Positions 5,713-64,000 are shown, counted from the first letter of the stretch. The stretch is 64,000 bases of DNA from an uncultured Verrucomicrobiae bacterium (GCA_963834385.1 CAWIBO010000003.1:160001-224000); one strand, 5' to 3'. A program made the numbers and translations. The notes: generated by a model not told the origin, from the letters alone.

Positions 5713-5755
5713 GAGCCATCGCGGTCCGACCGGCCGCGATGGCTCTTTTCTTTTT
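5713..5755 (+). terminator. Intrinsic terminator after yciF-like gene
   Basis: 12-bp stem GAGCCATCGCGG / CCGCGATGGCTC followed by TTTTCTTTTT. Confidence 0.8.
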
Positions 5756-5774
5756 CCCTCCTATACTCGGATCG

Positions 5775-7463
5775 ATGGGTTTGGCGGAATACAAGCGGAA
5801 GCGGAACTTCGGCGTCACGGCGGAGCCCAAGGGAGGCAAAGCACTGCCCAAAAAAGTGAAGGGCGCGTCCCGCTTCGTGATCCAGAAGCACGACGCCAGC
5901 CGGCTGCATTACGATTTTCGGCTCGAGATGGACGGCGTCCTCAAGTCGTGGGCGGTTCCGAAAGGGTTGCCCCTGGAGAAAGGGGAGAAACACCTCGCGG
6001 TGGAGGTGGAGGACCATCCGGTGGAGTACGCGACCTTTGAGGGAGTGATTCCGGAGGGCCAGTATGGCGGCGGCACCGTGATGCTGTGGGACGAGGGGAC
6101 CTACTCCGTCTTTGGCGAGAATCCCTTGCAGGCGCTCAAGAAAGGCCGGCTGCATCTGGTTCTGGACGGGAAAAAGGTGCGGGGAGAATGGGCCCTGATC
6201 CGCACCCGGATGGAGGCCGGCAAGCCGCAGTGGCTCCTCCTTAAGGCCACCGAGGATCACAAGCGCATCACCAAAAAGTCCGATGACCAGTCGGCCGTCA
6301 CCGGCCGTTCCATGAAAAAAATCGCGTCCGATCGTGACGCCGAATGGGAATCAAACCGCGCGGACGACCCGGCTTCGTCCCGGTTGAAAAGCCGGGTCCG
6401 GCGGGCTGTAAAAAAAAAGGAAAGCGCGCCCCGACGCCGTCCGGGAAAGGCAAAGAAAAACGGACCTGAGCTTCCGGCCGGCCTGCCGCGAAAGAACCCA
6501 GGTTTCATCTCACCCATGAAACCAAAGCTCGTCTCCGAGCCGCCCGCGGGGGAGGGCTGGGTCTACGAGCTGAAGTTCGACGGAATCCGCGCGCTGGCGG
6601 TGAAAAAGGGGAGGCAGGTGCAGCTTGTCTCGCGCAACGGCAACCAGTTGGCCGGTCGATTCCCGGAGGTCAGCTCGGCCTTTGCCCGTCTCGGGACGGA
6701 GGAATTCGTGGTTGATGGCGAAGTGGTGGCGCTCGATCCGAAGGGGAGAACCTCTTTTCAACTGCTGCAGTCGCGTGAGGCCGATGCCAGGCCGGCTCCG
6801 CTTTGCTATTACGCCTTTGACCTCCTGCAAGCGTCCGGGCATGACCTGACCGGGCTTCCCCTGCGGGAGCGCAAGGAGCTGCTCGAGGCGCTTCTTGGAA
6901 AGGACGATCCCATGCTGCGGTATTCGGGCGAGATCGGTGGATCGCCGGAAAAGCTGCTGCGCGAGATTCAGCGTCTCGGCCTGGAGGGGATCATCGGCAA
7001 GCGGCATGACTCGGTTTATGAAGCCGGGCGCCGCAGCGGGGCCTGGATCAAGTTGAAATGCCTGAACGAGCAGGAATTCGTCATTGGCGGGTTCACCCCC
7101 CCGGCCGGCTCGCGCAAGCACTTTGGCGCCGTCCTGGTCGGTTATTACGAGAAGAAGCGGCTGCTTTTCGCGGGCAAGGTCGGAACCGGGTTTGACGGGA
7201 GGATGCTGCGCGACCTGGCCCGCCGGTTTGAGGATTATGCGCAGGAGGAGTGCCCGTTTGCCGATCTGCCCTCAAAAGCGGGCGGGAAGTGGGTCCAGGG
7301 TATCACCCCGGCGGCCTTCCGGCGCTGCCACTGGCTCCGGCCGGAGCTGGTGTGCCAGGTGCGGTTCGCGGAATGGACGCGGGAGGGCAAGCTGCGCCAG
7401 CCGGTTTTTCACGGTTTACGGGAAGACAAGGCCCCCCGGGAAGTCGTGCGCGAAAAGGCCTGA
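5775..7463 (+). CDS. ligD: NHEJ DNA ligase LigD, phosphoesterase plus ligase domains (no polymerase domain)
   Basis: N-terminal FVIQKHDASRLHYDFRLE and SWAVPKG (PE domain). YELKFDGIR (adenylation Lys), VDGEVV, EGIIGK, WIKLK and C-terminal OB fold. Confidence 0.92.
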   Translation: MGLAEYKRKRNFGVTAEPKGGKALPKKVKGASRFVIQKHDASRLHYDFRLEMDGVLKSWAVPKGLPLEKGEKHLAVEVEDHPVEYATFEGVIPEGQYGGGTVMLWDEGTYSVFGENPLQALKKGRLHLVLDGKKVRGEWALIRTRMEAGKPQWLLLKATEDHKRITKKSDDQSAVTGRSMKKIASDRDAEWESNRADDPASSRLKSRVRRAVKKKESAPRRRPGKAKKNGPELPAGLPRKNPGFISPMKPKLVSEPPAGEGWVYELKFDGIRALAVKKGRQVQLVSRNGNQLAGRFPEVSSAFARLGTEEFVVDGEVVALDPKGRTSFQLLQSREADARPAPLCYYAFDLLQASGHDLTGLPLRERKELLEALLGKDDPMLRYSGEIGGSPEKLLREIQRLGLEGIIGKRHDSVYEAGRRSGAWIKLKCLNEQEFVIGGFTPPAGSRKHFGAVLVGYYEKKRLLFAGKVGTGFDGRMLRDLARRFEDYAQEECPFADLPSKAGGKWVQGITPAAFRRCHWLRPELVCQVRFAEWTREGKLRQPVFHGLREDKAPREVVREKA

Positions 7464-7540: not shown

Positions 7541-7616
<76 letters not shown>

Positions 7617-7660: not shown

Positions 7661-8086
7661 ATGAAACGTAAAGCATCGGCAGAATGGAAAGGGGATCTCA
7701 AGACCGGCCAGGGGACGATCTCCACGGAAAGCACCGTCCTGAGCAGCACGCACTATTCGTTCAGCAAACGATTCGAGGAGGAAAAGGGGACCAACCCGGA
7801 AGAGTTGATCGCGGCGGCGCATGCCGGCTGTTTTTCCATGGCCCTTTCGGGGCAACTGGGCGCGGCCAATCTGAAGGCGGAAAGCATTCGCACGACCGCC
7901 TCGGTTTCGCTGGAGAAGGGGGACGGCGGCTTTGCCATCACCGCGATTCACCTGGAAGTCGCGGCGCGGGTGCCCGGGGCGGACGAGGCGGCCTTCGCGA
8001 AGGCGGCCCAGGCGGCGAAAGAGGGGTGTCCGGTCTCCAAAGTGTTGAACGCCAAGATCAGCATGGAAGCGAAGCTGGAAGGCTGA
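7661..8086 (+). CDS. osmC: OsmC family peroxiredoxin
   Basis: GTNPEELIAAAHAGCFSMALS and AKEGCPVSK with both catalytic Cys. Confidence 0.95.
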   Translation: MKRKASAEWKGDLKTGQGTISTESTVLSSTHYSFSKRFEEEKGTNPEELIAAAHAGCFSMALSGQLGAANLKAESIRTTASVSLEKGDGGFAITAIHLEVAARVPGADEAAFAKAAQAAKEGCPVSKVLNAKISMEAKLEG

Positions 8087-8134
8087 AGACCGGCCGGGGC
8101 GGAGGGGGCGCGGCGGATCCCTCTGTACGCAGAA

Positions 8135-8167
8135 GACCGCGTTGCGGGTTCGAGCCGCAACGCGGTC
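8135..8167. terminator. Hairpin between convergent osmC and peptide genes (possible bidirectional terminator)
   Basis: 13-bp perfect stem GACCGCGTTGCGG / CCGCAACGCGGTC; only a weak U tract. Confidence 0.5.
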
Positions 8168-8185
8168 AACGCTAAGGGAGACTGG

Positions 8186-8344
8186 CTACCAGAGGTTCTT
8201 GTTTTTTCCCCCGCCGCCTTTTCCGCCCCCGCCTCCCCCGCCACCGGAGGAGCTGTTGTTCTTGTTCTTATTTCCACCCTTCTTGCCGCCACCTTTGGCG
8301 TCTTTGCTGGGTTTCAGGTCGCGAACTTTAGGTTTAGTTGGCAT
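8186..8344 (-). CDS. Putative double-glycine precursor peptide A, 52 aa (not in ORF track)
   Basis: Manual translation: MPTKPKVRDLKPSKDAKGG-GKKGGNKNKNNSSSGGGGGGGGKGGGGKNKNLW*. A-rich 5' leader; paralogous to peptide B. Confidence 0.85.
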   Translation of the reverse strand: MPTKPKVRDLKPSKDAKGGGKKGGNKNKNNSSSGGGGGGGGKGGGGKNKNLW

Positions 8345-8416
8345 TTACTTGTTTTTTTTGTTTTTGGGTTCGTCGCGTTGGGGATTGGACCCTCTGCGAT
8401 GAAGGTTGGTCGGTCT

Positions 8417-8618
8417 TTAGTTGTTCTTGTTACCGAAGCCGCCGCCTTTTCCGCCGCCGCCGCCGCTCGCTGCCGCCGCCGACGTTATTTCCTTTGCTTC
8501 CCCCGCCGCCGAGGTTGTTGCTCTTGGATTTACCGCCGCCGCCGCCGCCTTTGGCGTCTTTCTGGGGCTCCAGGTCGCGGATTGTTGGTTCGGGTTTCGG
8601 GTCGTTTTGTTTGTCCAT
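8417..8618 (-). CDS. Putative double-glycine precursor peptide B (apparent 1-nt insertion near 8468)
   Basis: MDKQNDPKPEPTIRDLEPQKDAKGG-GGGGKSKSNNLGGGGSKGNNVGGGS; removing one base continues SGGGGGKGGGFGNKNN*, which matches the tail of peptide A. As written it ends ERRRRRKRRRLR* at 8430. Confidence 0.8.
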
Positions 8619-8624
8619 GGTGTG

Positions 8625-8807
8625 TTACTGGTTGTGTTGGTTTGTTGGTTTGTTATCTGAAGAGGCCCCGAAGATCTGCCTTCCGCCGCTGACATCCCCT
8701 TTTGGGAGAAGATCATCGAGCCGGATCAGCTTTTCTTTTCTGCGCTTGGGCTTCCGGGCTTCTGGCCCTTCTGCCGGCGCATTTTCTGTATCCTTCGAGT
8801 CGCTCAC
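8625..8807 (-). CDS. Putative double-glycine precursor peptide C (GTG 8807 preferred; ATG 8846 alternative)
   Basis: MSDSKDTENAPAEGPEARKPKRRKEKLIRLDDLLPKGDVSGG-RQIFGASSDNKPTNQHNQ*. LDDLLPKGDVSGG aligns with the leaders of A and B; its stop lies 6 nt before the start of B. Confidence 0.7.
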   Translation of the reverse strand: MSDSKDTENAPAEGPEARKPKRRKEKLIRLDDLLPKGDVSGGRQIFGASSDNKPTNQHNQ

Positions 8808-8822
8808 GTTGCCCAATACATT

Positions 8823-8838
8823 ATCAGTATCCGTGCCA
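8823..8838 (-). promoter_or_regulatory. Candidate sigma-54 (-24/-12) promoter for the peptide genes
   Basis: Minus strand reads TGGCACGGATACTGAT against consensus TGGCACGNNNNTTGCW: perfect -24 box, correct spacing, GA instead of GC at -12. Confidence 0.55.
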
Positions 8839-8887
8839 GACCCCATTTTCCGTCCTTAACGAACCTCGACAATAATGTATAAGACAC

Positions 8888-8906
8888 TGTAAACGAGAAG
8901 GTTACA
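8888..8906. promoter_or_regulatory. Candidate upstream activator sequence (TGTAA-N9-TTACA)
   Basis: Inverted repeat in an AT-rich intergenic region, 50-70 bp upstream of the -24 box. Confidence 0.35.
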
Positions 8907-8988
8907 AAGAGGCAAATGAGCGAAAATAGGTTGAAAGCGGTCTCGGCGAAACCCTTAAAAAGGCACTAAAACGATACATCCACTGGCC

Positions 8989-10029
8989 TTATTCTGACCC
9001 TTCGGTGGTCGAGTTCTGGGCCATTGCTCGCAAATGGCGGGCAAGGGTGGCACGCGAGATTCCCAGCATCCGGGCGGTCCGCCGTTGGTTGCCGTTCATG
9101 TGACTGTAGACCGCCCGGATATGGCGCTGCACCGCGCTGCTCAGGGACAGGTCGTGATTCTCCTCCGTGGGGCCAGGCGCAAGACCCGAAGCGGCTGCGG
9201 CCGGCGGATCTCCCGGGCCGGGGTTTGTCACGGCCGCGTGGGAAACGGCCAGGTCAGGCGGGAAAACGACGTGGTGGGGCATGATGACCGAGCCCTCGCA
9301 AAACAGAGTCATGGTGCGAACGGTGTGGCTGAGTTCGCGCAGGTTTCCCCGCCAGTCGTGCGCGAGCAGCTTGGCCATGGCCGTGGGGTGAATGGCGGTG
9401 ATTTCCTTGCCTTCGCTCGCCGCGGAATGTTTCAGCTCGCCGGCGATCAACGGGGGCAGCTCTTCCAGGCGTTCACGCAAGGGCGGGATGAGGAGGGTCA
9501 GGCCGTTCAGGCGATGGTAGAGATCCTCCCGAAACTTTCCCTGGCGAACGCGTTCCCGCAGCGAGCAGTTGGTGGCGCAGATGATGCGAACGTCGGAGGT
9601 CAGCATCCGTTCCGACCCAAGCCGCTCGAATTCCCCGTATTCGAGTGCCCGCAGGACCTTGACCTGGGCGAGCGCGCTCATGTCCGCGATTTCGTCGAGG
9701 AAGAGGGTGCCGCCGTCCGCCAGCTCGAACTTTCCCTTCACCGTCTGCTGCGCTCCGGTGAAGGCGCCCCGTTCATGACCAAAGAGCTGGGATTCGAGGA
9801 GAGAATCGGTCATGGCCGAGGCGTTAAAGGCGATGAACGGCTGTTTGGCCCGGGTGGAGGAGTTGTGAATGGCGTGGGCCAGGAGCGTCTTGCCGGTCCC
9901 GGTCTCCCCGAGGAGGACGACGGGAACGTCGGAGCGGGCGGCGAGGGCGGCGAGGCGCAGGCAGCGGGCCATGGCCTCATTCGTCGTGGCCAAATCCTCC
10001 ACGCGCAGGTCGGAGAGCGTCCGCTGCAT
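8989..10029 (-). CDS. Sigma-54 enhancer-binding protein (AAA+ and Fis HTH) lacking an N-terminal sensory domain
   Basis: Walker A GETGTGKT, intact GAFTGA, LFLDEI, FREDLYHRL, WRGNLREL and HTH GNQRRTARMLGISRATL. The AAA+ domain starts within ~10 aa of the Met. Confidence 0.93.
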   Translation of the reverse strand: MQRTLSDLRVEDLATTNEAMARCLRLAALAARSDVPVVLLGETGTGKTLLAHAIHNSSTRAKQPFIAFNASAMTDSLLESQLFGHERGAFTGAQQTVKGKFELADGGTLFLDEIADMSALAQVKVLRALEYGEFERLGSERMLTSDVRIICATNCSLRERVRQGKFREDLYHRLNGLTLLIPPLRERLEELPPLIAGELKHSAASEGKEITAIHPTAMAKLLAHDWRGNLRELSHTVRTMTLFCEGSVIMPHHVVFPPDLAVSHAAVTNPGPGDPPAAAASGLAPGPTEENHDLSLSSAVQRHIRAVYSHMNGNQRRTARMLGISRATLARHLRAMAQNSTTEGSE

Positions 10030-10036
10030 CAGCCGG

Positions 10037-11207
10037 CTAGTTTACCGCGAGGTTTTCCTTGAGTTCCTTGATCGGCTCGAAGAACGACTCGATCAGGGTT
10101 CTCTTGCCGGTAACGATGCGGGCTTCGCCGCGCATCCCGACGCGCAGGGCGAGCTTGGGCGGCCTTTTTTCCCAGTCCTGGATGGTGGCGACCCCGACGA
10201 AGCGGGGTCCTTCCTGCGAGTTGACGGCGGAGGGGCTGATCCAGTCGAGACGGGCGTTGACGGCGCCATAGCGCTGGTAGGGGAAGGCGTCGAAAAAGAG
10301 CTTGGTGCTGAGCCCGGCGGTGAGCTTGGAAAGCCCGGCCTCGGAGAGGAGGAGCCGGGCTTGCGGGGTGGCCTCGACCCGGGCGAGCTGGCAGAGTTCC
10401 TGGCCATTCTGGACCACGTTGCCGACGCTGCGCTGGGAAACGGAAATAACCACGGCATCGTAGGGGGCCTGCACGGTCAGGAGGCTGAGCTGGCTGTTCT
10501 CGAGGTCGCCCTGCAGGGCGGCGAGTTTGACCCGGAGTTTCCCGATCTCCGAGACGGCATCGCCGCGCTGGCGGGCATGATCGGTCTCCATTTTTTGCCG
10601 GTCCAGGATCACCTGCTGCAGGGTTCTCTGCGCCACGCTCTGGTCCTTCTCGGACTCAGCGAGGTCGAGGCCGAGCTGGAGCAGTTCCACCTGGGAAATG
10701 CCGCCGGTCTTGGAGAGTTTCTCCATGCGCTCGACGAGTTCGCGGCTGGTGGAGGCGTGTTTCTCGCGAAATTCGACCTCGCTTTTGGCCTGCTCGATCT
10801 CGGCCTCCTTGATCTTTCTGCTGGGCGGCGAAAGCGGCATCCGCGCGTTCCAGGTTTTCCTCCTGCGCTTTGAGATCGGCCTCGGTGGTCCTGAGATCGG
10901 TGTTCCAGCTCCTGATTTCGTCCGAGCGCAGAACAAACAATTCCTCTCCCTTCTTCACCGTCTGGCCCTCGCGCGCGGCGACCTTGGTGACGACGGCCTG
11001 GCGGGGCGACTGGATCGGATCGGCGCCATCCTGCGGGACGAGGACAAACGGGCAATCCACCGTCTCCGGCAGGCGCACGATGATGGTGGCGAGGACGGCG
11101 ACAATGAACATGGCGATGAGGAGGCGGGAAGCCGCCCGGATGATCCAGGGGGGTGGATCCTGCGGGAGCATTTCCGACTCGGACTCGAAGGAATTGGAGG
11201 ACGCCAT
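10037..11207 (-). CDS. HlyD-family membrane fusion protein (apparent 1-nt insertion near 10816)
   Basis: N-terminal TM segment, lipoyl half-motif REGQTVKKGEELF, coiled coil, then DAFPYQRYGAV and LRVGMRGEARIVTGKRTLIE. The two ORFs join by removing one T of TTT at 10815-10817. Confidence 0.9.
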
Positions 11208-11216
11208 GGGATATGC

Positions 11217-14200
11217 CTAGTGGAAACCGGACTGCTGGCTGGAGAGATAAAAGTAGAGACCGCGCTGTTCCATGAGCTGGTCGTGATTGCCGGCCTCGGC
11301 GATGCGGCCTTTTTCCAGGACCACGATGGTATCCGCATCGCGGATGGTGCTGAGGCGGTGGGCGATGGCGAGGGTGGTGCGGCCGGCCATGAGGCGCCCG
11401 AGGTTGTTCTGGATGGCGCGCTCCGACTCGGTATCCAGGGCGCTGGTGGCCTCGTCGAAAATGAGAATCGGCGGGTTGTTATAGATGGCGCGGGCGATGG
11501 CGATGCGCTGTTTCTGCCCGCCGGAAAGGGAAAGCCCCGATTCGCCGATCTTGGTTTCGTAGCCCATGGGGAGGCGCATGATGAAATCGTGGGCGGCGGC
11601 GGCGGAAGCGGCCGCGAGGACCCGGTCGAGATCCGGCTCCGCATCCCCGAAGGCGATGTTGCGGGCGATCGTCTCGTTAAACATGTGGTTCTCCTGGAGA
11701 ACCATGCCGACGTGCCGCCGGACGTCGCGGTAATTCAGGCTCTTCAGGTCGACGTTATCGAAAAGAATGGTCCCCTCGGTCGGCTCGAGCAGTCCGGCGA
11801 TGAGCTTGATCAGGGTGGTCTTGCCGCAGCCGCTGCGCCCGACGAAGGCGATCATCTTGCCGGGGGCGATGTCGAGATTGAGGTCGCTCAGGATGTTGGG
11901 CGCCTCGGGTCCGCCGTAGCGGAAGCTGACGTTGCGCAGCTCGATCCGGCCTTCAAGGCTGTGCACCGGGGTGAGGCGGGAACGGTCGCGACCCTGCTCC
12001 GGTTCCTGCTCGAAGATGTCGTTCAGGCGATTGAGAAGAACGGAGGAGAACTGGAGATTGTCCCAGACGCCGAGGGTGCGCAGGATGCCGCCGTAAGCCA
12101 TGGCGGTGAGGGAACTGAAAGCGACGAAGCCGCCGACGCTGATGGCGCCGGACATCACCTGGTTGGCCCCGACCCAGAGGAAGACAGCGGTGGAAACAAG
12201 CCCGATCGTGGTCAGGACACTGTCGTAGGACATGACGATAAAGCTGCTCCGGAAGATCTTTTTCGAGACGGCGAGGAACTCGTTCAGCATCAGGTCGCGA
12301 AAGACGCCCTCGGCCGCGGCGGCTTTGACCGCCTCGATGCCCTTGATGGCGTCGATCTGGTGCGAGCTGTATTTGCCCTGGCTTTCCTCGACATCGGCAA
12401 AGAGCGGCCGCAGGATTTTGACGGAAAAATACATCAGCCCGACGTAGAAGGGGGTGGTCGCGAGGAAGGCGAACATGAGGAATGGGCTGTAGACCATCAT
12501 CAGCCCCAGGGAACCGACCAACTGGATCAGGGCCAGGAGGGCGCCGATGCCCTCGCCCACGGCGAACTGGCGGACTTCGCGGGCCCCGTCGAGACGCCGC
12601 TGGATGTCGCCGGTGCGCCGGCTCGTGAAATACGTCATGGGCAGGGAGAGGAGCTGCCGGCTGAGGAAATCGAGAATGGCGGTATCGAGACGAACCGCGG
12701 TGAAGGAGAGAAGGTATTCCTGCGCGAGCGAGGCACCCTGGACGAAGATGATCGCGAGGGCCATGCCGAGGAGAATGGTGGAAAGAAGGTCGATATCCTT
12801 TTCCACGATGACCTTGTCGACCACCATCTGGGTGAAGATGGGAAAGAGGAGCTGGAGGACGCTGATGGCGACGGAAAGGATCAGGACCTGGATGAGGATG
12901 TGCTTGAACTTCGCGATGAAGGGAAGAACCCAGTTGATGGAAGGTTTGCTCTCCGGCGCCTGTTCAAAGGCGGGCGTGTAATCAAAAAGCGCGGCGTACC
13001 CCGACCAGTTCTCCTCGAACTCCTTGCGCGGGATCTTGCGCAGGCCAAGCGCCGGGTCGGCCACGCGGACAAAAGTGTCCTGCACGTCGTAAAGGACCAT
13101 CCAGTGGTTGCCTTCCCAGTGCACGATGGCCGGGAGCGGCATGAGCGAGAGATTGCGGATGGAAACCTTGAGGGCCCGGGCGGCGAGGCCCAGTTCGTTC
13201 GCAGCCCGGCAAAGCGCCTTCAGGCTGGTCCCGTCCGTGGCGGTGTGACAAAGCTGCCGGATCCGGGCGAGGCTGACCTTGCGTCCGAAATGGCGGCAAA
13301 TCATCCCGAGACTGGCGGCGCCGCAATCCATCTCGTCGATCTGCTGGATATGCTCAAAACGCTTGATCCGGCCGGTGCGTTTCTTGAAGAAACCCTCCTC
13401 GTCGGCAAAAGGATGCTTCGGATCCTCCACCGGCGGGGGCCGTTCGGCCGCGCCATCCAGGGCCGTCTTGTCGTGCGTCCGCGTTTCCGCCGGCAGGAGC
13501 TCGGTCGAAAAATCGAGCGGGACCCGCGCCTCCGTTTCGAGCTGGTACTGGGCCAGCCGTTCCTCGAGGAGCTTTTCAAACTCGGGGAAGTGCCGCTTCA
13601 GGTCCTGCACTGCCTCGGGCTCGAGGGCCAGCAGCCGGCAATCGGAGAATGCTTCCACGGAAGCGGCGCGGGAGGACCCGTTCAGGATCGAGAGTTCGCC
13701 GAAGAAATCGCCGTCGCGGTAAAAGGCGAGATTCTTCTGGGAACCATTGTTCTGGGCAAAGGCCCGGGCGCGCCCTTTCTCGAGGATATACATGGGGCCG
13801 GCCGGCGCTCCCTCCTCGATGATGAGGTTGCCCTTTTCGACCTGCACCGGCTCGAGCTTGGCGATGAGGCTGCGGAGCGCGCTCGCGGGCAGGCGCCCAA
13901 AATTGCTGAACTCGTAGAGGAAACCCTGCAAGGCGCGATGGCGGGCCGTCAGCTCAATATGCTGCTTCAGGTCGGGGATTCTCTCGGCCAGTTCAAAAAA
14001 GTCGGTCCGGGCCAGGCGAAGCGCCTCCACCCCGGTGCTGCAGCGAACGGTGGCGGCCCGGGTGCCGCCATCGGAAAGGGCGGCTTCGCCGAAAATATCG
14101 CCCGGACGCAGGGTGCCGAGCGCGATCTCCTCTCCATTGGGCTGCATCTTGATCGCGCGCGCCCGGCCGGAAATGATGACGTAGACGGCGTCGGCGGGAT

Positions 14201-14336
14201 CGCCCTGGCGGACAATGATCTCGCCGAAATCGAACTGTTCCTCGCGGAGGAGGGGACGAAGCTTGTCGAAATGTTCCTCCGGGAGGAGCCGGAAGAGGGA
14301 GGACCGCCTGAGTAAATCTTCGTCGCGCGTCTTCAT
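11217..14336 (-). CDS. Peptidase-containing ABC transporter: 2x cNMP-binding + C39 peptidase + TMD + NBD (1039 aa)
   Basis: FGEAALSDGGTRAATV and FGELSILNGSSRAASV (cNMP cassettes). QIDEMDCGAA, VHWEGNHW and VADP (C39 Cys-His-Asp). GRSGCGKT, LSGGQKQR and FDEATSALD. ATGA overlap with the upstream gene. Confidence 0.95.
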   Translation of the reverse strand: MKTRDEDLLRRSSLFRLLPEEHFDKLRPLLREEQFDFGEIIVRQGDPADAVYVIISGRARAIKMQPNGEEIALGTLRPGDIFGEAALSDGGTRAATVRCSTGVEALRLARTDFFELAERIPDLKQHIELTARHRALQGFLYEFSNFGRLPASALRSLIAKLEPVQVEKGNLIIEEGAPAGPMYILEKGRARAFAQNNGSQKNLAFYRDGDFFGELSILNGSSRAASVEAFSDCRLLALEPEAVQDLKRHFPEFEKLLEERLAQYQLETEARVPLDFSTELLPAETRTHDKTALDGAAERPPPVEDPKHPFADEEGFFKKRTGRIKRFEHIQQIDEMDCGAASLGMICRHFGRKVSLARIRQLCHTATDGTSLKALCRAANELGLAARALKVSIRNLSLMPLPAIVHWEGNHWMVLYDVQDTFVRVADPALGLRKIPRKEFEENWSGYAALFDYTPAFEQAPESKPSINWVLPFIAKFKHILIQVLILSVAISVLQLLFPIFTQMVVDKVIVEKDIDLLSTILLGMALAIIFVQGASLAQEYLLSFTAVRLDTAILDFLSRQLLSLPMTYFTSRRTGDIQRRLDGAREVRQFAVGEGIGALLALIQLVGSLGLMMVYSPFLMFAFLATTPFYVGLMYFSVKILRPLFADVEESQGKYSSHQIDAIKGIEAVKAAAAEGVFRDLMLNEFLAVSKKIFRSSFIVMSYDSVLTTIGLVSTAVFLWVGANQVMSGAISVGGFVAFSSLTAMAYGGILRTLGVWDNLQFSSVLLNRLNDIFEQEPEQGRDRSRLTPVHSLEGRIELRNVSFRYGGPEAPNILSDLNLDIAPGKMIAFVGRSGCGKTTLIKLIAGLLEPTEGTILFDNVDLKSLNYRDVRRHVGMVLQENHMFNETIARNIAFGDAEPDLDRVLAAASAAAAHDFIMRLPMGYETKIGESGLSLSGGQKQRIAIARAIYNNPPILIFDEATSALDTESERAIQNNLGRLMAGRTTLAIAHRLSTIRDADTIVVLEKGRIAEAGNHDQLMEQRGLYFYLSSQQSGFH

Positions 14337-15415
14337 TCTTCGATCATCTGGTAAAAGAGGCGCCACTGGATGTGGACGCCGCAAAGCTCGTCGAAGTGGC
14401 GCTGCAGGATGGCCTGCTGCACCCGGCCGCTGACCATCTCGTCCTCCAGGCTGGGTTCGATCTTGCTGGTGACCCGTCCGATCTCAAAAACGTCTCCCTG
14501 CTCGATCGGCCCGAGGACCGCACCGGGCGAAACGCTGAGATATTTTTGTTGCCAGTCCTCGTTCACGTTTTCGAGCACCACCTGCGACTGGCGATAGGGA
14601 TACCCTCCTTCGTCCGCCACTTCCTTCATGGTCATGCCGTCTTCGCGTACGCAAAGCAAGGCTTCATTCGCCGCATCAAGTGAATCAAACTGGATCACCT
14701 CGAGCTCGAAACGGGTCAGGGGCAGACGGAGGGAGGATAGTTCCTCGGCCCGCGCCTGCGGGTTCACGAGAGAGCCACTGCGGGCGCGGTAGGCGGCTTC
14801 CGCCTCCAGGGCGTGGTCCAGCCAGGCCTTTTCGCGATCGATCTGTCCCAGCCAGGCCTCGACCTCCTCCTCCCGGAGCCCGTGGCGCTCGAGAAATTCC
14901 TCCCGGGCCCGGGCAACCGCCGCCGGGTCCACCTCTTCTTCAGCCCGTCGCACGGCCACCCGCCAGCCCAGCTGCGTGGCGATCCGTTCGAGCTCGTCGG
15001 AGAAAAGAAGGTGGGCGGCAAAAAGTTCCTTCAGCTCTTTCCCGGCCCCGGGGTAGGCCTGGTCGGGGAGGTCGATTCTGACTGTCCGCGCCCAGTAACG
15101 GCGGCTGAAGAAGTCGCCGAAATCATTCATGTCGAGCCCGCGGGCGGAGAGCCATTTCTCCGTCTCCTCCGCCGTGATCAGGTCGTGCTGATAACGAAAG
15201 GCGTCCGCGGCTTCGTCGAGGGCGTCCCCCTCGATCTCCAGGTCATCCTGGTGGGCCTTTTTTTCCGCCTCCACTCCCCGCAGGAAGTCCGCCCAAATCG
15301 GGCCCAACTCTCCGCGGAAAAGGGCGCCATCAATCACATCGCGCAAGGTGTAAGTCTGGTTACCCGACTCAAATACCGTTACATCCTGCCGTGCCTTTTC
15401 CTCTGTCGCGGTCAT
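14333..15415 (-). CDS. Parvulin/PpiC-related foldase-like protein, translationally coupled to the transporter
   Basis: LDEAADAFRYQHDLITAEETEKWLSARGL and C-terminal SPGAVLGPIEQGDVFEIGRV...EPSLED resemble the PpiC-like proteins found beside cNMP-containing peptide transporters. Catalytic motifs look degenerate; no signal peptide. Confidence 0.65.
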   Translation of the reverse strand: MTATEEKARQDVTVFESGNQTYTLRDVIDGALFRGELGPIWADFLRGVEAEKKAHQDDLEIEGDALDEAADAFRYQHDLITAEETEKWLSARGLDMNDFGDFFSRRYWARTVRIDLPDQAYPGAGKELKELFAAHLLFSDELERIATQLGWRVAVRRAEEEVDPAAVARAREEFLERHGLREEEVEAWLGQIDREKAWLDHALEAEAAYRARSGSLVNPQARAEELSSLRLPLTRFELEVIQFDSLDAANEALLCVREDGMTMKEVADEGGYPYRQSQVVLENVNEDWQQKYLSVSPGAVLGPIEQGDVFEIGRVTSKIEPSLEDEMVSGRVQQAILQRHFDELCGVHIQWRLFYQMIEE

Positions 15416-15534: not shown

Positions 15535-16062
15535 TCAGGCCGCGAGCAGCGGGGAAACCGGACGGGCGGATTCAACACCCCCGAACTTCGGATAAAGAAA
15601 GCGAGCCACCACGCTGGAGCGCTTGGCCAGGGCCGACGCCCGCCGCAATCCGGCCTCGGCGAGGAGGTGGAGAGCGCTTTCCATGAGCAGGGCGGCAAAG
15701 CCCCGGTTCCGATATTCCATCAGGATGCAGGGTCCGGGGGCGAGGTGATACTCCGACTCCGGGTCGAGGGAGAGCATGGTGGCGCCGATGATGCGCTGGC
15801 CATGCTTGAGCACGAGACCGGCATGCAAACCGCTCTCGGGGGCAAAGGCTCCCTCCAGCCATTGGTCGATCAACTCGCTCATTTCCTGAAGCTCCGGGTT
15901 CCACGACGAATCGAGGACGAAGGAGGTGGCAATGGCCCGGCGGATTTCCTGCTCGTCGCCTTCCTCTGCGGGCAGGACGCGATAATGTTCCGGCGCGCCG
16001 AGGCCGGGCGGCGGAAGCTGCGTCAAGTCCCACGAAAAACGTGTCCAGTTATCCCTTCTCAT
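15535..16062 (-). CDS. GNAT-family N-acetyltransferase-like protein
   Basis: ILMEYRNRGFAALL (acetyl-CoA motif A) and ARFLYPKFG (motif B-like); start uncertain. Confidence 0.7.
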   Translation of the reverse strand: MRRDNWTRFSWDLTQLPPPGLGAPEHYRVLPAEEGDEQEIRRAIATSFVLDSSWNPELQEMSELIDQWLEGAFAPESGLHAGLVLKHGQRIIGATMLSLDPESEYHLAPGPCILMEYRNRGFAALLMESALHLLAEAGLRRASALAKRSSVVARFLYPKFGGVESARPVSPLLAA

Positions 16063-16214
16063 AAGTCGGGGGCGCCCGGTCGAGAGACCGGAAACAACCC
16101 TTCCCGGAGGTGTTAACGCGGCAACCATGGTTGTGAGACGCACTTTCCTGCGTCACCCAAGTTAAAATCGTGGCGCCGCCCCTCCCCGGATGGGACAAAA
16201 CGGCGCGGTTGGCT

Positions 16215-16688: not shown

Positions 16689-17855
16689 TTAGCGGAAGGC
16701 GTTGGCGGGAAGGTCGAGGCGAAGTCCGGAATCGAGGTCGCTGTCGATGCCGCGCGCCTTCTGAATCAGGTCGAGCCCGCGGGCGATCCGGCCTTTGCGG
16801 CTGGCATAAAGCCGGGCCGTGTTTTCGTCGATGGCGCCGTTTTCGTAGGCATTGAGGATCGACTGGTCGAAGGTGAGCCAGCCGAAGGGGGTGCTGGCCT
16901 CGATGATTTCGTAGAAGTTGCGGTGTTCACCTTCGCCAAGAGCGATGGTTTCCTTGGTCCGCAGATTGTTGCCCATGATCTCGGCAAGGAGATGACGGCC
17001 GCCGCCGGCCCGGGGGACGAGGCGCTGGCTCACGATGTAGCGAAGGGTGTCGGAAAGGCGGAGGCGCAACTGCTGTTCTTCGCCGAGGGAGAAGAGGCCG
17101 AGGATGCGGTTGATCGACTGGCCGGCGTCGACCGTGTGCAGGGTGCTGAGGACGAGGTGACCGGTCTCGGCCGCCATGAGGGCGACCTCGACGGTGGCGC
17201 GGTCGCGCATTTCGCCTACGAGGATGACCTTGGGAGCCTGGCGCAGGGCGGCGCGCAGGCCGTTGGGATAGTTGTTAAAATCGTGGCCCAGCTCGCGCTG
17301 ATTAAAGGTGGCGCGGTGAGACCGGTGGATGAACTCGATCGGGTCCTCCAGGGTCACGATATGCACGGCCTGCTTTTCGTTGATCTCGTTCAGGAGAGCG
17401 GCCAGCGTCGTGGTCTTGCCGCTGCCGGTGGCGCCGGTGACCAGGATAAGGCCGGTCTTTTCGCGCGCGATCTCCTCGAAGATGGGCGGCAGTTCGAGGC
17501 CGCCCAGCGTCGGGATCTGGGCCTGCAGCTTGCGCATGACAATGGAGAACTGGCCCTGTTGCCGGAAGATATTGACGCGGAAACGCGCCTCCTCCCCCAG
17601 GGTGTAGCTGCAGTCGCAGGAGCCCCCAGTGAGATAATCGTAGAGAAGACGACGGTTGCCCTGCATCAAAGTCAGGGCGATCTGCTCGGTCTGGTGCGGC
17701 GTCAGGGCCTCAATCGGCGGATCGACGAAGACCGGCTTGAGTTCGCCGAAGTCCTCCACCTGGAGGGGACGGCCGACGGAAAAATTGAGGTCGGAAATGC
17801 CGTCATACGTCTGCAGCATGGCCGAAAGAATGCGGTCGAGGTCGGGAATTCGCAT
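16689..17855 (-). CDS. PilT/PilU-family type IV pilus retraction ATPase
   Basis: GATGSGKTTT, TLEDPIEF, ALRQAPKVILVGEMRD and AETGHLVLSTLHT motifs. Confidence 0.93.
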   Translation of the reverse strand: MRIPDLDRILSAMLQTYDGISDLNFSVGRPLQVEDFGELKPVFVDPPIEALTPHQTEQIALTLMQGNRRLLYDYLTGGSCDCSYTLGEEARFRVNIFRQQGQFSIVMRKLQAQIPTLGGLELPPIFEEIAREKTGLILVTGATGSGKTTTLAALLNEINEKQAVHIVTLEDPIEFIHRSHRATFNQRELGHDFNNYPNGLRAALRQAPKVILVGEMRDRATVEVALMAAETGHLVLSTLHTVDAGQSINRILGLFSLGEEQQLRLRLSDTLRYIVSQRLVPRAGGGRHLLAEIMGNNLRTKETIALGEGEHRNFYEIIEASTPFGWLTFDQSILNAYENGAIDENTARLYASRKGRIARGLDLIQKARGIDSDLDSGLRLDLPANAFR

Positions 17856-17866
17856 GGCGGGGCGAT

Positions 17867-18949
17867 TTATTCGTCGGTGAGGTCGGTCGGCGGGTTCTTG
17901 AGGAAGGGCCGGAATTTTTTCTTATCGAGGCACTTGTCGTAGGCTTCCTCGGGAGAGATGCGGGCCTCGCGGAGGTGCTCCATGATGGCGTCGTCGAGCG
18001 GCTGGTTGCCCTTTTTCTTGCCCACCTGGATCATGCCGGGGATCTGGTGGGTCTTGGCCTCGCGGATCAGGTTGGCAATGGCCATGTCGACCACGAGGAT
18101 CTCGAGGGCGGCAACGCGGCCGGGCCGGTCGATGCGCTTGAACAGGTTCTGGGCGATGACGCCCTTGAGCGACTCGGCCAGGGTGGTGCGGATCTGGTTT
18201 TGCTGGCTGGTCGGGAAGACATCAACCACGCGGTCGACCGCCTTGGAGGCGCTGGAGGTGTGGAGCGTGCCGAAAACAAGGTGGCCGGTGGCGGCGGCGG
18301 TGAGCGCGAGCTCAATGGTCTCGAGGTCGCGCATTTCGCCGACGAGCAGGATATCGGGATCTTCGCGCAGGGCGCCGCGGAGGGCGGCGGCGAAGGAGCG
18401 GGTATGGACGCCCACCTCGCGGTGCTGCACCAGGCAATTCTGGCTGCGGTGCACAAACTCGATCGGGTCCTCCACCGTGATGATGTGGTCGTGCCTTTGC
18501 AGGTTCGCGTAATCCATCATGGCCGCGAGCGTGGTCGACTTGCCGGAGCCGGTCGGGCCGGTGACCAGAATGAGACCTTTTTTCAGGAGCGGAAATTTTT
18601 TCAGGACCGGCGGCAGGTTCAACTGCTCGACCGTCAGGACCGTGGAAGGAATCAGGCGGAAGACCGCGGAGATGCCGTATTTCTGCTGGAAAAAGTTGGC
18701 GCGGTAGCGGGCGACGCCCGGCACTTCATAGCCGAAATCGACGTCGGAAGTTTCCTCGAAGAGTTTGATCTTACCCTCCGGGGCGATCTCATAGACCATG
18801 GCCTTGAGTTCGTCGTTGGCGAGCGCGGGGTAGTCGACCCGGATCAGCTCGCCATTGATGCGAAGCATCGGCGGGTTGTTCGTGGAAAGGTGAAGGTCCG
18901 AGGCCTTTTGCTCGGACATAAGTTTGAAGAAAGCGTCAATGCGAGCCAT
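17867..18949 (-). CDS. pilT: Type IV pilus twitching motility ATPase PilT
   Basis: GPTGSGKSTT, TVEDPIEF, ALREDPDILLVGEMRD, TGHLVFGTLHT and the AIANLIRE (AIRNLIRE-like) motif. Confidence 0.95.
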   Translation of the reverse strand: MARIDAFFKLMSEQKASDLHLSTNNPPMLRINGELIRVDYPALANDELKAMVYEIAPEGKIKLFEETSDVDFGYEVPGVARYRANFFQQKYGISAVFRLIPSTVLTVEQLNLPPVLKKFPLLKKGLILVTGPTGSGKSTTLAAMMDYANLQRHDHIITVEDPIEFVHRSQNCLVQHREVGVHTRSFAAALRGALREDPDILLVGEMRDLETIELALTAAATGHLVFGTLHTSSASKAVDRVVDVFPTSQQNQIRTTLAESLKGVIAQNLFKRIDRPGRVAALEILVVDMAIANLIREAKTHQIPGMIQVGKKKGNQPLDDAIMEHLREARISPEEAYDKCLDKKKFRPFLKNPPTDLTDE

Positions 18950-61890: not shown

Positions 61891-64000
61891 TCAGGCCGGC
61901 TGCCAGAGCCCGCCCTCGCCCTCGTGGCGGCGACGCGCCAGCGCGGGTTCCTCCGCGTAACGAACTTCCTCCGCGGAATCCTCGGGCGTCGTGGCCTCGG
62001 CCGGCGGGCTGTCGTCATTTCTCGCCTGGTGCGTCTTCGCGATCAGGACGTACAGACTCGGCAGGATGAAAAGGGTCAGGAGCGTTCCGATGGCCATGCC
62101 GCCGACGAGGACAAGGCCGATCGAGTTGCGCGCCTCCGCCCCGGCGCCGGTCACGAGGATGAGCGGAAAATGGCCGGCGACGGTGGCAAACGTGGTCATG
62201 AGGACCGGGCGAAACCGGGTCCGCGCCGCTTCGGCGGCCGCCCGCACCTTGTCATAACCCTGGCGCTGCAATTCGTTGGCGAACTCGACGATGAGAATGC
62301 CGTTCTTCGCGATCAGACCGATGAGTGTCACCAGGCCGACCTGCGAATAGATGTTGAAGGAAGTGGTCCAGGCGTTGGTGAAAAACGGCATCGGCGCCGG
62401 GATCTTGAGAAAGATGAAGATCATGGCGCCGAACATGGCCAGGGGGACCGAGCCGCCGAGGATGATGAGCGGATCACGGAAGCTGTTGAACTGCGCGGCG
62501 AGGACCAGAAAAATCAGCGCGACCGCCAGAAGGAAAGCCTCGAGAAACTTGTCTCCTTCCTGCCGGAGCTGGCGGGAACTGCCGGTATAATCAATGGAAT
62601 AGCCGGCGGGCAGAATATTCGCGGCCTCGTTCTCAAGGAGCTTGAGCGCCTGGTCCACCGGACGGATGGCCTGGCCGCTGATCTTGACGGCGTTAAGCTG
62701 CTGCATGCGGTTGAGCGAGCGCGGCACCGTGCGCGTCCGCAGGGTGGCAATGCTGCTGAGCGGGATGAGCTTGTCCTCCGGCCCGGTCACATAAACGTCC
62801 GCCAGCTGATCGGCGTTGAGCCGGTCCACCCGCTGCACCTGCGGGATGACCTTGTAGCTGCGGCCCGACATGTTGAACCGGTTCACGAAGTTCCCGCCAA
62901 AGAGCGCGGAAAGATCGGCCCCGACCTCCTGCAGATCGAGCCCCATGGCCGCTACCTTGTCGTGATCGAGCACCACCTCGGTCTCCGGCTTGTCGATCTT
63001 GGTGTCGATCAACGGCGGAAAAGCGAACATCCCGCTCTCCATCGCCTTCTGTTGCAACTGGCGCGCGAACTCGAGGATCCGGTCCGGCTCGGCCGTGGAA
63101 AGAATGACAAACTCGACCGGGAAATCCGAACCGCCGGGGAGGGGATCGGGCATGATCGGGAACATCTGGATGCCGGGGATGCCTCCAAGTTTCTGCTGGA
63201 CCATCGGGAGGAGCTCGAAGGCCGATTTGTCGCGCTGATCCCACGGTTTCAGGACCATGCCGCCGAAGCCGAAGGTGGGGGAGGTGATCTGGAAGGAGTA
63301 ATTTGTCTCGGGGAAACTGTGGAAAACTTCCCCGGCCTGGTCGGCGTAGGCGATCGTCTGGTCGATTGTCGCCGTCGCCGGGGCCTGAATGATGCCGAAG
63401 ATGACGCCCTGGTCTTCCGTGGGCGCGAGTTCCACCGCGGCCACGAAATCCTTCGCGACAAACATCAGGATGGCGAGGGCGAAGACCGCTCCCCAGACCG
63501 TGTAAACCATGCCCCGATTGCGCAGCGTGACCTCGAGCCGTCGCATGTAGAAATCGCGCACCCGTTCAAAAATGCGGTTCACCCGCGCGCTGAATCCGCG
63601 GTCGGCCCCGCCCGGCTTGAGCAGTTTGGCCGACATGACGGGCGAAAGGGTGAGAGCGACCGCGCCGGAGATCAGGACCGCGCCGGCGAGGGTAAAGGCG
63701 AACTCGCGGAAAAGGGTGCCGGTGAGCCCGCCCTGGAAACCGATCGGGGTGTAAACCGCCGCGAGGGTGATGGTCATGGCGATGATCGGCTTGACCAGTT
63801 CGCGCGCCCCGAGGAAAGCCGCCTGCCGCGGGGTTAAACCTTCGCGGATATGCCGCTCCACGTTTTCCACCATGACGATGGCGTCATCGACCACGAGGCC
63901 GACGGAAAGCACAATGGCGAGAAGGGTGAGCAGGTTCAGGGTGAACCCGAAGATCTGCATGAGGAAGACCGCGCCGATGAGCGAGATCGGGATCGCGACA
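61891..64000 (-). CDS. RND efflux permease, 3' part (5' end outside window)
   Basis: VGLVVDDAIVMVEN, GLIAKNGILIVEFAN and RFRPVLMTT motifs. Confidence 0.95.
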   Translation of the reverse strand, partial: VAIPISLIGAVFLMQIFGFTLNLLTLLAIVLSVGLVVDDAIVMVENVERHIREGLTPRQAAFLGARELVKPIIAMTITLAAVYTPIGFQGGLTGTLFREFAFTLAGAVLISGAVALTLSPVMSAKLLKPGGADRGFSARVNRIFERVRDFYMRRLEVTLRNRGMVYTVWGAVFALAILMFVAKDFVAAVELAPTEDQGVIFGIIQAPATATIDQTIAYADQAGEVFHSFPETNYSFQITSPTFGFGGMVLKPWDQRDKSAFELLPMVQQKLGGIPGIQMFPIMPDPLPGGSDFPVEFVILSTAEPDRILEFARQLQQKAMESGMFAFPPLIDTKIDKPETEVVLDHDKVAAMGLDLQEVGADLSALFGGNFVNRFNMSGRSYKVIPQVQRVDRLNADQLADVYVTGPEDKLIPLSSIATLRTRTVPRSLNRMQQLNAVKISGQAIRPVDQALKLLENEAANILPAGYSIDYTGSSRQLRQEGDKFLEAFLLAVALIFLVLAAQFNSFRDPLIILGGSVPLAMFGAMIFIFLKIPAPMPFFTNAWTTSFNIYSQVGLVTLIGLIAKNGILIVEFANELQRQGYDKVRAAAEAARTRFRPVLMTTFATVAGHFPLILVTGAGAEARNSIGLVLVGGMAIGTLLTLFILPSLYVLIAKTHQARNDDSPPAEATTPEDSAEEVRYAEEPALARRRHEGEGGLWQPA

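Follow-up and report, generated by a model that had tools for sequence, protein, structure and literature searches.

In 2011 Wang et al. catalogued 145 bacteriocin clusters in cyanobacteria (PMC3140520); groups I, II and VI are described there as having, beside precursors with a double-glycine (GG) leader, genes for a long transporter with a C39 peptidase and a CAP_ED domain, for HlyD and for a rotamase or SurA-type protein. HetC from Nostoc PCC 7120, a peptidase-containing ABC transporter (PCAT; ABC for ATP-binding cassette) with a domain of the cyclic nucleotide-binding (cNMP) type, was reported to need its protease and its ATPase residues for function (PMC10986499). Here we describe a gene cassette with such a transporter on the minus strand of a 64,000-nucleotide stretch of DNA from an uncultured Verrucomicrobiae bacterium (GCA_963834385.1 CAWIBO010000003.1:160001-224000; the whole stretch is called the window below), where it occupies positions 8186 to 15415. 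Judged from comparison of its sequence with those of related loci, the cassette, which is conserved in Verrucomicrobia abundant in soil, most likely serves to cleave and export small peptides rich in glycine.

The original prediction had described seven co-oriented minus-strand genes, and all seven are there: a gene for a PpiC-like protein (14333..15415, 360 aa), the PCAT gene (11217..14336, 1039 aa), hlyD (10037..11207, a span of 1171 nt), a gene for a bacterial enhancer-binding protein (bEBP; 8989..10029, 346 aa) and three small open reading frames (ORFs); hlyD, however, is not a single open frame, being broken at 10816-10845. The spacing is as it had been read, with an ATGA overlap between the stop codon of the PpiC-like gene and the ATG of the transporter gene at 14336, 9 nt between transporter and hlyD (start at 11207), 7 nt between the stop of hlyD (10037) and the start of the activator gene (10029), and an AT-rich gap after it (GC about 0.50 across 8600-9049, about 0.63 elsewhere). 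That the combination as such was undescribed had been claimed too broadly, since the core triad of transporter, HlyD and SurA-type protein is among the clusters catalogued in cyanobacteria (PMC3140520).

On the evidence of homologous loci, dozens of which repeat both the order of the genes and the leaders of the peptides, the cassette is real and strongly conserved. The relatives are metagenome-assembled genomes, mostly from soil, labelled Chthoniobacterales, Candidatus Udaeobacter, Spartobacteria or Verrucomicrobia, and the occurrence counts given here take in those loci that have room for the gene in question. In 15 loci from related genomes the genes for the PpiC-like protein and the transporter are adjacent (15/15), and HlyD and then the activator follow in all 13 that reach far enough; the junction of the first two genes reads ATGA in 13/14 loci and GTGA in one. 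A set of 79 species-representative loci, the genomes of which are partly shared with the 15, contains the transporter in 64/64, HlyD in 55/59 and the activator in 53/54 cases. The gene-order picture is the same in 80 metagenome loci, and a metagenome scan with a narrower alignment found mostly the same Chthoniobacterales-type loci. The PpiC-like protein occurs in 17 of 41 related genomes, the own genome and one unpublished genome (G007) included: in 15/24 genera of the same family and in 1/16 genomes from the 15 other sampled families of the order. Across the phylum it was found in 5/301 sampled genomes. A locus from another family of the phylum (L118, G282:C42, 3983-8384) has only the PpiC-like gene and a PCAT gene with two cNMP domains, followed by an MraY-like gene; its transporter has the signature motif LSQAQ, not LSGGQ.

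That the transporter is a PCAT with cNMP domains had been predicted correctly. Pfam finds two cNMP-binding domains (PF00027), a Peptidase_C39 domain (residues 327-452), a transmembrane domain (PF00664, 483-746) and an ATPase domain (PF00005, 816-965), the last two in a single polypeptide as is usual for PCATs. The long N-terminal part is of the kind defining group I of the cyanobacterial clusters: the first 319 residues align with the regulatory subunits of the protein kinases PKA and PKG, including both FGE...RAA phosphate-binding cassettes. An alignment of the C39 region with LahT150 and ComA has the catalytic residues Cys, His and Asp in place. In the window and 69 further loci, Q332, C338, H411 and D427 as well as the second cNMP cassette are conserved throughout (70/70), and the first cassette in all but one (69/70). 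The protein stays below the curated cut-offs of TIGR01193 (bacteriocin_ABC, 434.5 vs 523.85 bits), TIGR03796 (NHLM_micro_ABC1, 538.7 vs 853.3 bits) and TIGR01846 (HlyB, 548 vs 725.55 bits). In its own genome (2.9 Mb, 89.6% complete) it carries the sole C39 domain; the genome also has six matches to class-III cyclase domains and four TolC-like genes, all four outside the cassette.

The three small ORFs (8625-8846, 8430-8618 and 8186-8344) had been taken for double-glycine substrates with a shared leader. All three have D-L-x-P-x-x-D-x-x-G-G, and in the B peptides, as defined below, the leader is conserved and the conservation ends exactly at GG, which argues for the assignment; yet they are not of one kind, one being a conserved peptide (A) and two being variable (B1 and B2). 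For peptide A the most likely start is GTG 8807 (8625..8807, 60 aa) and not ATG 8846, because in relatives the frame is closed by a stop codon shortly upstream of the corresponding GTG. Its N-terminus is Lys-rich, its leader ends in KLIRLDDLLPKGDVSGG and its conserved core starts RQ(L)(L)FGA; the family pattern is KLIRLDDLIPKxxVxGG, then a core [RH]Q(L)(L)FG[AV]TD..., and in 35 aligned sequences I28, R29, L30, D32, L33, P35, V39, G41, G42 and G47 are invariant. The variation of the leader is of the coding type, being concentrated at third codon positions (summed entropy 8.0, 3.0 and 16.1 at positions 1, 2 and 3). Its GG is present in 35/35 sequences, with Val at -4; the B leaders have Ala at -4. 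In the ESM Atlas peptide A matched only unnamed Verrucomicrobiota clusters, and NCBIfam and Pfam assigned none of the three small ORFs to a family.

Peptide B1 (8430..8618, 62 aa as read) has a leader ending in TIRDLEPQKDAKGG and a Gly/Lys/Asn-rich core; peptide B2 (8186..8344, 52 aa) has the leader MPTKPKVRDLKPSKDAKGG and a low-complexity core rich in Gly, Lys, Asn and Ser. The family has a short Lys-rich N-terminus followed by KVRDLKPxKDAKGG. The B cores of 42 relatives are all distinct (42/42), with a median length of 32 aa and a median net charge of +2; none contains Cys (0/42) and 30/42 have tandem repeats of 3-10 residues. They consist of 23.7% Gly, then Ala, Ser, Gln, Asn, Arg, Thr and His, with 2.4% Asp plus Glu (Glu 0.1%), 2.2% Lys, no runs of Arg and hardly any hydrophobic residues. 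Such fast-diverging, repeat-rich, mildly cationic peptides are probably secreted unmodified, and they may have an antagonistic, or a surface- or metal-related, role. Among the 49 loci with at least 900 nt 3' of the activator, peptide A is present in 45 (46 with L081, where the ORF starts inside the end of the activator gene) and peptide B, searched with a profile of its leader, in 40, with 0-5 B genes per locus downstream of A; three loci (L075, L078 and L104) have neither. The A and B pair is tandemly duplicated 3' of one cassette in L065 and L109. The own genome has, in addition, an orphan B-type gene on contig C1 (about 62479-62790, plus strand) with a leader ending in LKIRDLTPIKDAKGG, a Gly/Ser/Thr-rich core, the motif CGGCACGcaagGTGTTAA about 90 nt upstream and ComEC- and MsrA-like neighbours, no exporter being nearby; with a single C39 peptidase in the genome this gene must therefore use the transporter of the cassette.

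The activator had been called sensor-less, and so it is: its AAA+ domain begins at residue 15 of 346, and in relatives the gap to HlyD is too small for more. Pfam recognizes Sigma54_activat (15-179), AAA_lid_14 and HTH_8 (303-335), a Fis-type helix-turn-helix (HTH), and the GAFTGA loop is visible in the translation. All NCBIfam equivalogs, including PspF (241.7 vs 443.55 bits), score it below their cut-offs, and rpoN is present in the genome above its own (441.8 bits). In front of peptide A lies a motif resembling the -24 element of sigma-54 promoters, TGGCACGgataCTGaTAA (8821..8838), which in related loci takes the form cTTGGCAYGaATrCTGdTAA. It is found 29-34 nt (16 in one locus) 5' of the start of peptide A in 37/41 loci, and three of the four misses are near-matches by eye. 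In all 37 matched sites TGGCA, the -24 element, is present, as is TG at the sigma-54 spacing. The motif fronts the peptide operon and not the export operon, since upstream of the PpiC-like gene it was found in 2/76 loci. Genome-wide it matched three times, as compared with 0-2 times in five order-1 simulations, and two of the three matches precede GG-peptide genes, namely peptide A and the orphan B gene. A scan with the canonical TGGCAC-N5-TTGC and up to 2 mismatches gave 50 matches, with 65 expected, among them the locus with 2 mismatches; it is uninformative by itself because its matches are no commoner than expected. Farther upstream, 60-100 nt from the -24 motif, the stacked sequences of 39 loci reveal by eye a conserved AT-rich element with an imperfect dyad, TGTAAC..GTTTACA (8888..8906 in the window), possibly a site for the activator or for a bending protein of the integration host factor type.

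How the parts belong together can be read from loci that have lost some of them. In a pool of 61 loci with complete transporter, activator and at least 1200 nt downstream, taken from the species-representative and the metagenome loci and some of them near-identical, HlyD is missing from eight (L081, L088, L093, L106, L154, L174, L180 and L197); all eight have A, none has B, and the PpiC-like protein, the PCAT and the bEBP are kept. The 53 loci with HlyD have A and B in 47 cases, A only in 2 and neither in 4. A FastTree phylogeny of the transporter requires the HlyD state to have switched 4 times, at least 3 of these switches falling on well-supported branches, and in 3/3 independent pairs B goes the way of HlyD. 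The co-loss therefore assigns B to HlyD, and A to the PCAT, the partner protein and the activator.

We consider it fairly probable that the cassette is a two-operon system which processes and exports double-glycine peptides under the control of its bEBP and is gated at its cNMP domains. The export operon would encode the SurA/PrsA-like partner (the PpiC-like protein, see below), the PCAT with two cNMP domains, HlyD and the sensor-less bEBP, and would stand outside the control of the sigma-54-like motif. The bEBP together with RpoN would fire the -24/-12-type promoter directly before the A and B genes. The precursors would be recognized by a leader that is Lys-rich and then reads [IV]R..DLxPxK[DN][VA]xGG with Pro at -8, the partner protein presumably holding or presenting this proline-containing leader; the C39 domain would cut after GG, and the ABC part would move the cores out of the cytoplasm, from where the B cores could leave the cell via HlyD and one of the unlinked TolC-like channels. 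A nucleotide bound at the cNMP domains may gate the transporter. Peptide A would probably have a separate role, regulatory or envelope-directed, since the pair of PCAT and bEBP keeps A even where HlyD and B are lost.

Several observations weigh against this reading. The peptide promoter departs from canonical sigma-54 sites in that the C of the -12 consensus is missing: the position is A in the window and A, G or T elsewhere, with C in 0/37. The motif also lies so near the GTG start that the predicted 5' untranslated region is merely a few nucleotides long, and in some relatives a Shine-Dalgarno-like AGGAGG stands between motif and start of A. The leaders, to go by their sequences, depart from the recognition pattern of studied PCATs: as reported for ComA and LahT, substrates present Leu-12, Glu-8, Leu-7 and Val-4 along a short helix (PMC6363468), and of these positions only -4 fits; in both A and B position -7 is Lys or Ser, -8 an invariant Pro, and -12 either Asp or Arg. 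Such a proline would break the helix of the studied leaders. The cNMP domain of HetC was reported to bind ppGpp in vitro and not a cyclic nucleotide (PMC10986499). The cassette has no immunity gene, modification enzyme or TolC. Outer-membrane export may fail in this genome because hlyD is frame-broken; the four loci with HlyD that have neither peptide nearby do not fit; and a sign test on three independent pairs gives p 0.25 and cannot reach significance.

As to the promoter, sites elsewhere in the own genome bear on the -12 region and on the short leader. At C1:57324 (-), C2:499196 (+) and C1:172859 (-) there are sigma-54-like sites that read TGGCAYG-N4-CTGCT(A/T)A, one of them only 12 nt before an ATG. 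The shape CTGnTAA is common to the genome's other sigma-54-like sites, since these read TGGCAYG-N4-CTGCTAA, which suggests that short leaders and such a -12 region may be usual in this organism. The notion of a self-contained circuit, put forward in the original prediction, can be kept in so far as the flanking genes are not shared with relatives, the activator is sensor-less and the motif precedes the peptide operon; it has to be restricted in so far as the promoter is non-canonical and hlyD is broken here.

The break in hlyD raises the question whether the locus is decaying in this organism. The gene is read in two frames, 10656-11207 (183 aa) and 10037-10936 (299 aa); the first is matched by positions 4-142 of the TIGR01843 profile, the second by positions 135-413. 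In tblastn comparisons relatives, in which hlyD is a single intact frame, match one frame up to 10845 and the other from 10816, and between these positions there are 28 nt here and 27 in relatives. A second frameshift, in B1 near 8465-8480, is likely from the translations, because the Arg-rich tail of B1 as read is unlike that of any relative, and the +1 frame, which ends at 8417, gives a Gly-rich tail ending NKNN, like that of B2. Both breaks could be real mutations, B being no longer secreted and the locus being on its way to the form with A only, a reading to which we give somewhat less than even weight. It would account for two frame breaks within 2.5 kb that both fall in parts (HlyD and B) co-lost in at least 3 lineages, and it has parallels in relative L088, with an HlyD remnant carrying an internal deletion and a degraded B-like ORF, and in relative L106, with AG for GG in peptide A. 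The genome, however, was assembled into 5 contigs (up to 1.3 Mb), in which indels could have arisen during assembly, and a frame-broken A is also seen in the relative locus L023. Among sequencing runs no RNA run was listed for the region, and in DNA from soil only four runs of one study cover shares of 0.06-0.18 of it, with contigs that do not bridge the hlyD break. One contig of 151 nt, the only one to reach the site, stops aligning exactly at 10815, 7 letters short of its own end, which hints at a length difference at the break and counts against decay, though it is single and of low depth. A soil contig of run X1 has a 3-nt insertion, TTG, at 8348 just upstream of the start of B2 and three substitutions, which is strain-level variation of the peptide region.

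Apart from decay, the export of GG peptides under bEBP control has to be compared with other ways of reading the two peptides. One conserved and several hypervariable peptides with a common GG leader and a single PCAT recall the streptococcal Blp/Com systems, in which case A would be a quorum signal and B would be toxins resembling class II microcins; a conserved leader with a fast-diverging core is also typical of the cargo of bacteriocin clusters and of pathways for peptides that are ribosomally synthesized and then modified post-translationally (RiPPs), as described for such systems (PMC3140520; PMC6363468). Yet the cassette has neither histidine kinase nor response regulator, the bEBP has no receiver domain, no immunity gene is conserved next to the peptide genes, relatives do not share the flanks, and the B cores are of low complexity and hydrophilic, unlike membrane-active class II peptides. 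Peptide A, moreover, is strongly conserved from genus to genus, whereas pheromones as a rule form diverging specificity groups, which speaks against A as one of them. On balance we think this reading unlikely.

A little less likely still is a relay in which regulation is coupled to export. Sensor-less activators need a protein regulator in trans: PspA holds PspF inactive, and HrpV holds HrpS inactive. Peptide A could be such an anti-activator of the bEBP, which would be freed when the PCAT cleaves or exports A, with the B peptides as passengers; peptide A, the nucleotide-gated PCAT, the SurA-like partner and the bEBP would then form a self-contained relay from a second messenger to sigma-54 transcription via the proteolysis and export of A, in its logic resembling the FlgM export checkpoint, and B with HlyD would be an optional output module that was dropped at least 3 times. 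The lack of a sensor domain in the bEBP agrees with this, as do the conservation of the core of A, but not of the B cores, across genera, the place of A, which in almost every locus comes first after the promoter, and its persistence with PCAT, partner and bEBP in the 8/8 loci that lack HlyD and B. But a small exported signal or an envelope-acting peptide explains the same conservation, and three related loci (four rows in the co-loss comparison) keep the bEBP with no A nearby.

The PpiC-like protein, the partner of the transporter in the export reading that we prefer, belongs to no Pfam family and has no signal peptide in its sequence. TIGR04500 (PpiC_rel_mature) matches it with 33.3 bits, short of its cut-off of 180, and matches all members of the family weakly (79/79). 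An AlphaFold2 model from an alignment of these 79 sequences (pLDDT 91.9, pTM 0.84) has as its top Foldseek matches SurA (2pv3) and PrsA (5tvl, 7l75 and 4wo7), and the profile of the family also touches the C-terminal part of SurA in a weak sequence match. The protein thus resembles the rotamase/SurA-type proteins of the cyanobacterial clusters by fold and by this weak match to SurA, without a Pfam rotamase match. From the model we take it to be a cytoplasmic SurA/PrsA-like protein, chaperone plus parvulin, and a distant relative of TIGR04500. In the 79 aligned sequences no His is invariant or near-invariant at residues 230-325, which, in view of the active site of parvulins, would favour a chaperone over an isomerase. 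A predicted complex of the protein with peptide A scored 0.19 (mark 0.32) and counts neither way. At 50% identity the family comprises 1926, 1191 and 486 clusters (E <= 1e-3, 1e-10 and 1e-30), one of them labelled Acidobacteriota; 15/15 sampled distant representatives score 22.7-51.5 bits on TIGR04500.

The kinship to TIGR04500 matters because MirC, a member of that family, was described as the obligatory partner of the ATP-grasp ligase MirB in the rosaritide pathway, a RiPP pathway with a PCAT (PMC13097080), and because TIGR04500 is listed among the families associated with graspetide loci (PMC8939145). The cassette could accordingly be part of a RiPP pathway the tailoring enzymes of which are encoded elsewhere, the PpiC-like protein being the partner of an unlinked enzyme, but this seems quite improbable, since the cassette has no conserved enzyme gene at its flanks, translation of the partner gene is coupled to that of the PCAT gene and not of an enzyme gene, and the B cores, with no Cys and so little Asp, Glu and Lys, are poor material for graspetides, lanthipeptides or thiazoles. 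The graspetide variant was rejected, the own genome, 89.6% complete as it is, having no match to TIGR04187 (the MirB type of ATP-grasp).

As to the surroundings, the hairpin just 3' of B2 (8135..8167; a perfect stem of 13 bp with a 7-nt loop, minus strand) folds with -32.2 kcal/mol (z -3.56; 0/200 shuffles fold equally well) and is likely the end of the peptide transcript. Scans of 7900-9200 for sigma-70 and terminator consensus sequences found nothing on the minus strand, and Rfam gave no match in 8000-9100 at E <= 1. Queries with the flanking GNAT, 155-aa ORF, PilT and LigD regions gave no tblastn match in 94 related loci, and these genes are therefore no part of the system; a query for the OsmC region did not either, a weak negative since its coordinates were mis-set. 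The cassette is a self-contained module, in that relatives do not share the genes at its sides. Directly upstream of it lies a gene for a GNAT acetyltransferase (15535-16143, minus strand), which is not kept there in relatives, followed by two tandem genes for PilT-type ATPases (16689-17855 and 17867-18949, minus strand) as judged from their translations. On the other side are a gene for a LigD-type ligase (5739-7463, plus strand), also judged from its translation, and tRNA-Phe (7541-7616, plus strand; ARAGORN). None of these neighbours is syntenic with the cassette in other loci.

PCATs with cNMP domains are widespread, and HetC, the single studied member according to the literature at hand, has no known substrate (PMC10986499). 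Here a transporter of this type is encoded next to candidate substrates, a regulator of its own and a partner chaperone, in Udaeobacter-type Chthoniobacterales, a lineage that is among the most abundant and least cultured in soil. With the parts cloned one could ask what cargo long PCATs carry, which ligand their nucleotide domain binds and what the job of the SurA-like partner is. Two unannotated peptide families are added, with a leader that departs from the accepted recognition rule, and the PpiC-like family is large and without a curated model.

Compared with known systems, the cassette has most in common with the cyanobacterial clusters of groups I, II and VI, which have the same set of long C39 transporter with N-terminal CAP_ED (cNMP) domain, SurA-type protein and GG precursors, and also HlyD (PMC3140520), the gene for which is present but frame-broken in the window and intact in 55/59 related loci. 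Those clusters were described in silico, with precursors assigned to NHLP, Nif11, HetP, DUF37 or "other" and with an average of 0.35 precursors per cluster in group I, and the account of them makes no mention of a sigma-54 activator (PMC3140520). As they are described, they differ from the verrucomicrobial cassette, which has two cNMP domains, a bEBP, a promoter motif and the two families A and B. Searches of the literature gave no paper joining Udaeobacter with C39 and none joining "peptidase-containing ABC transporter" with sigma-54; a wider search (Udaeobacter, Chthoniobacterales, bacteriocin, RiPP, double-glycine) gave unrelated bacteriocin papers only. In the sources consulted, as far as they go, neither a sensor-less bEBP nor a promoter with a non-consensus -12 region, a leader with Pro at -8, A/B cargo or a co-loss of HlyD and B is described for such clusters.

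HetC is likewise a PCAT with an N-terminal domain of the cNMP type (PMC10986499); as it is described, no GG-leader gene lies near hetC, whereas here candidate substrates adjoin the transporter in most loci. PCAT1, ComA and LahT share with our transporter the C39 fold with Gln/Cys/His/Asp and the half-transporter ABC architecture, but have no cNMP domains, where this one has two; their leaders place Val-4 together with Leu-7 and Leu-12 on a short helix, as reported (PMC6363468), whereas in those of the cassette -8 is Pro and -7 is Lys or Ser. The export of class II microcins (CvaAB-TolC) also combines, in a diderm, a GG-leader peptide with a PCAT, an adaptor of the HlyD family and an unlinked TolC; the cassette differs from it in having no immunity gene, in its low-complexity, repeat-rich cores, and in its cNMP domains, partner chaperone and sigma-54-type control.

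PspF and HrpR/S are sensor-less enhancer-binding proteins that consist of an AAA+ domain and an HTH. The bEBP of the cassette is like them in having the sigma-54 AAA+ domain and the HTH without an N-terminal regulatory domain; it differs in that no PspA- or HrpV-like gene was recognized for it and in its PspF score below the cut-off. MirC of TIGR04500 is, like the PpiC-like protein, a divergent cytoplasmic PpiC/SurA-like protein whose gene stands next to that of a PCAT within a peptide locus (PMC13097080); as far as MirC is described, the two differ in that the PpiC-like protein reaches only 33 of the required 180 bits, had no ATP-grasp partner that could be found, and has its gene coupled to that of the transporter. 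The core triad is thus an already known kind of exporter; what is new lies in its regulator and promoter, in a leader that has Pro at -8, and in the A/B cargo.

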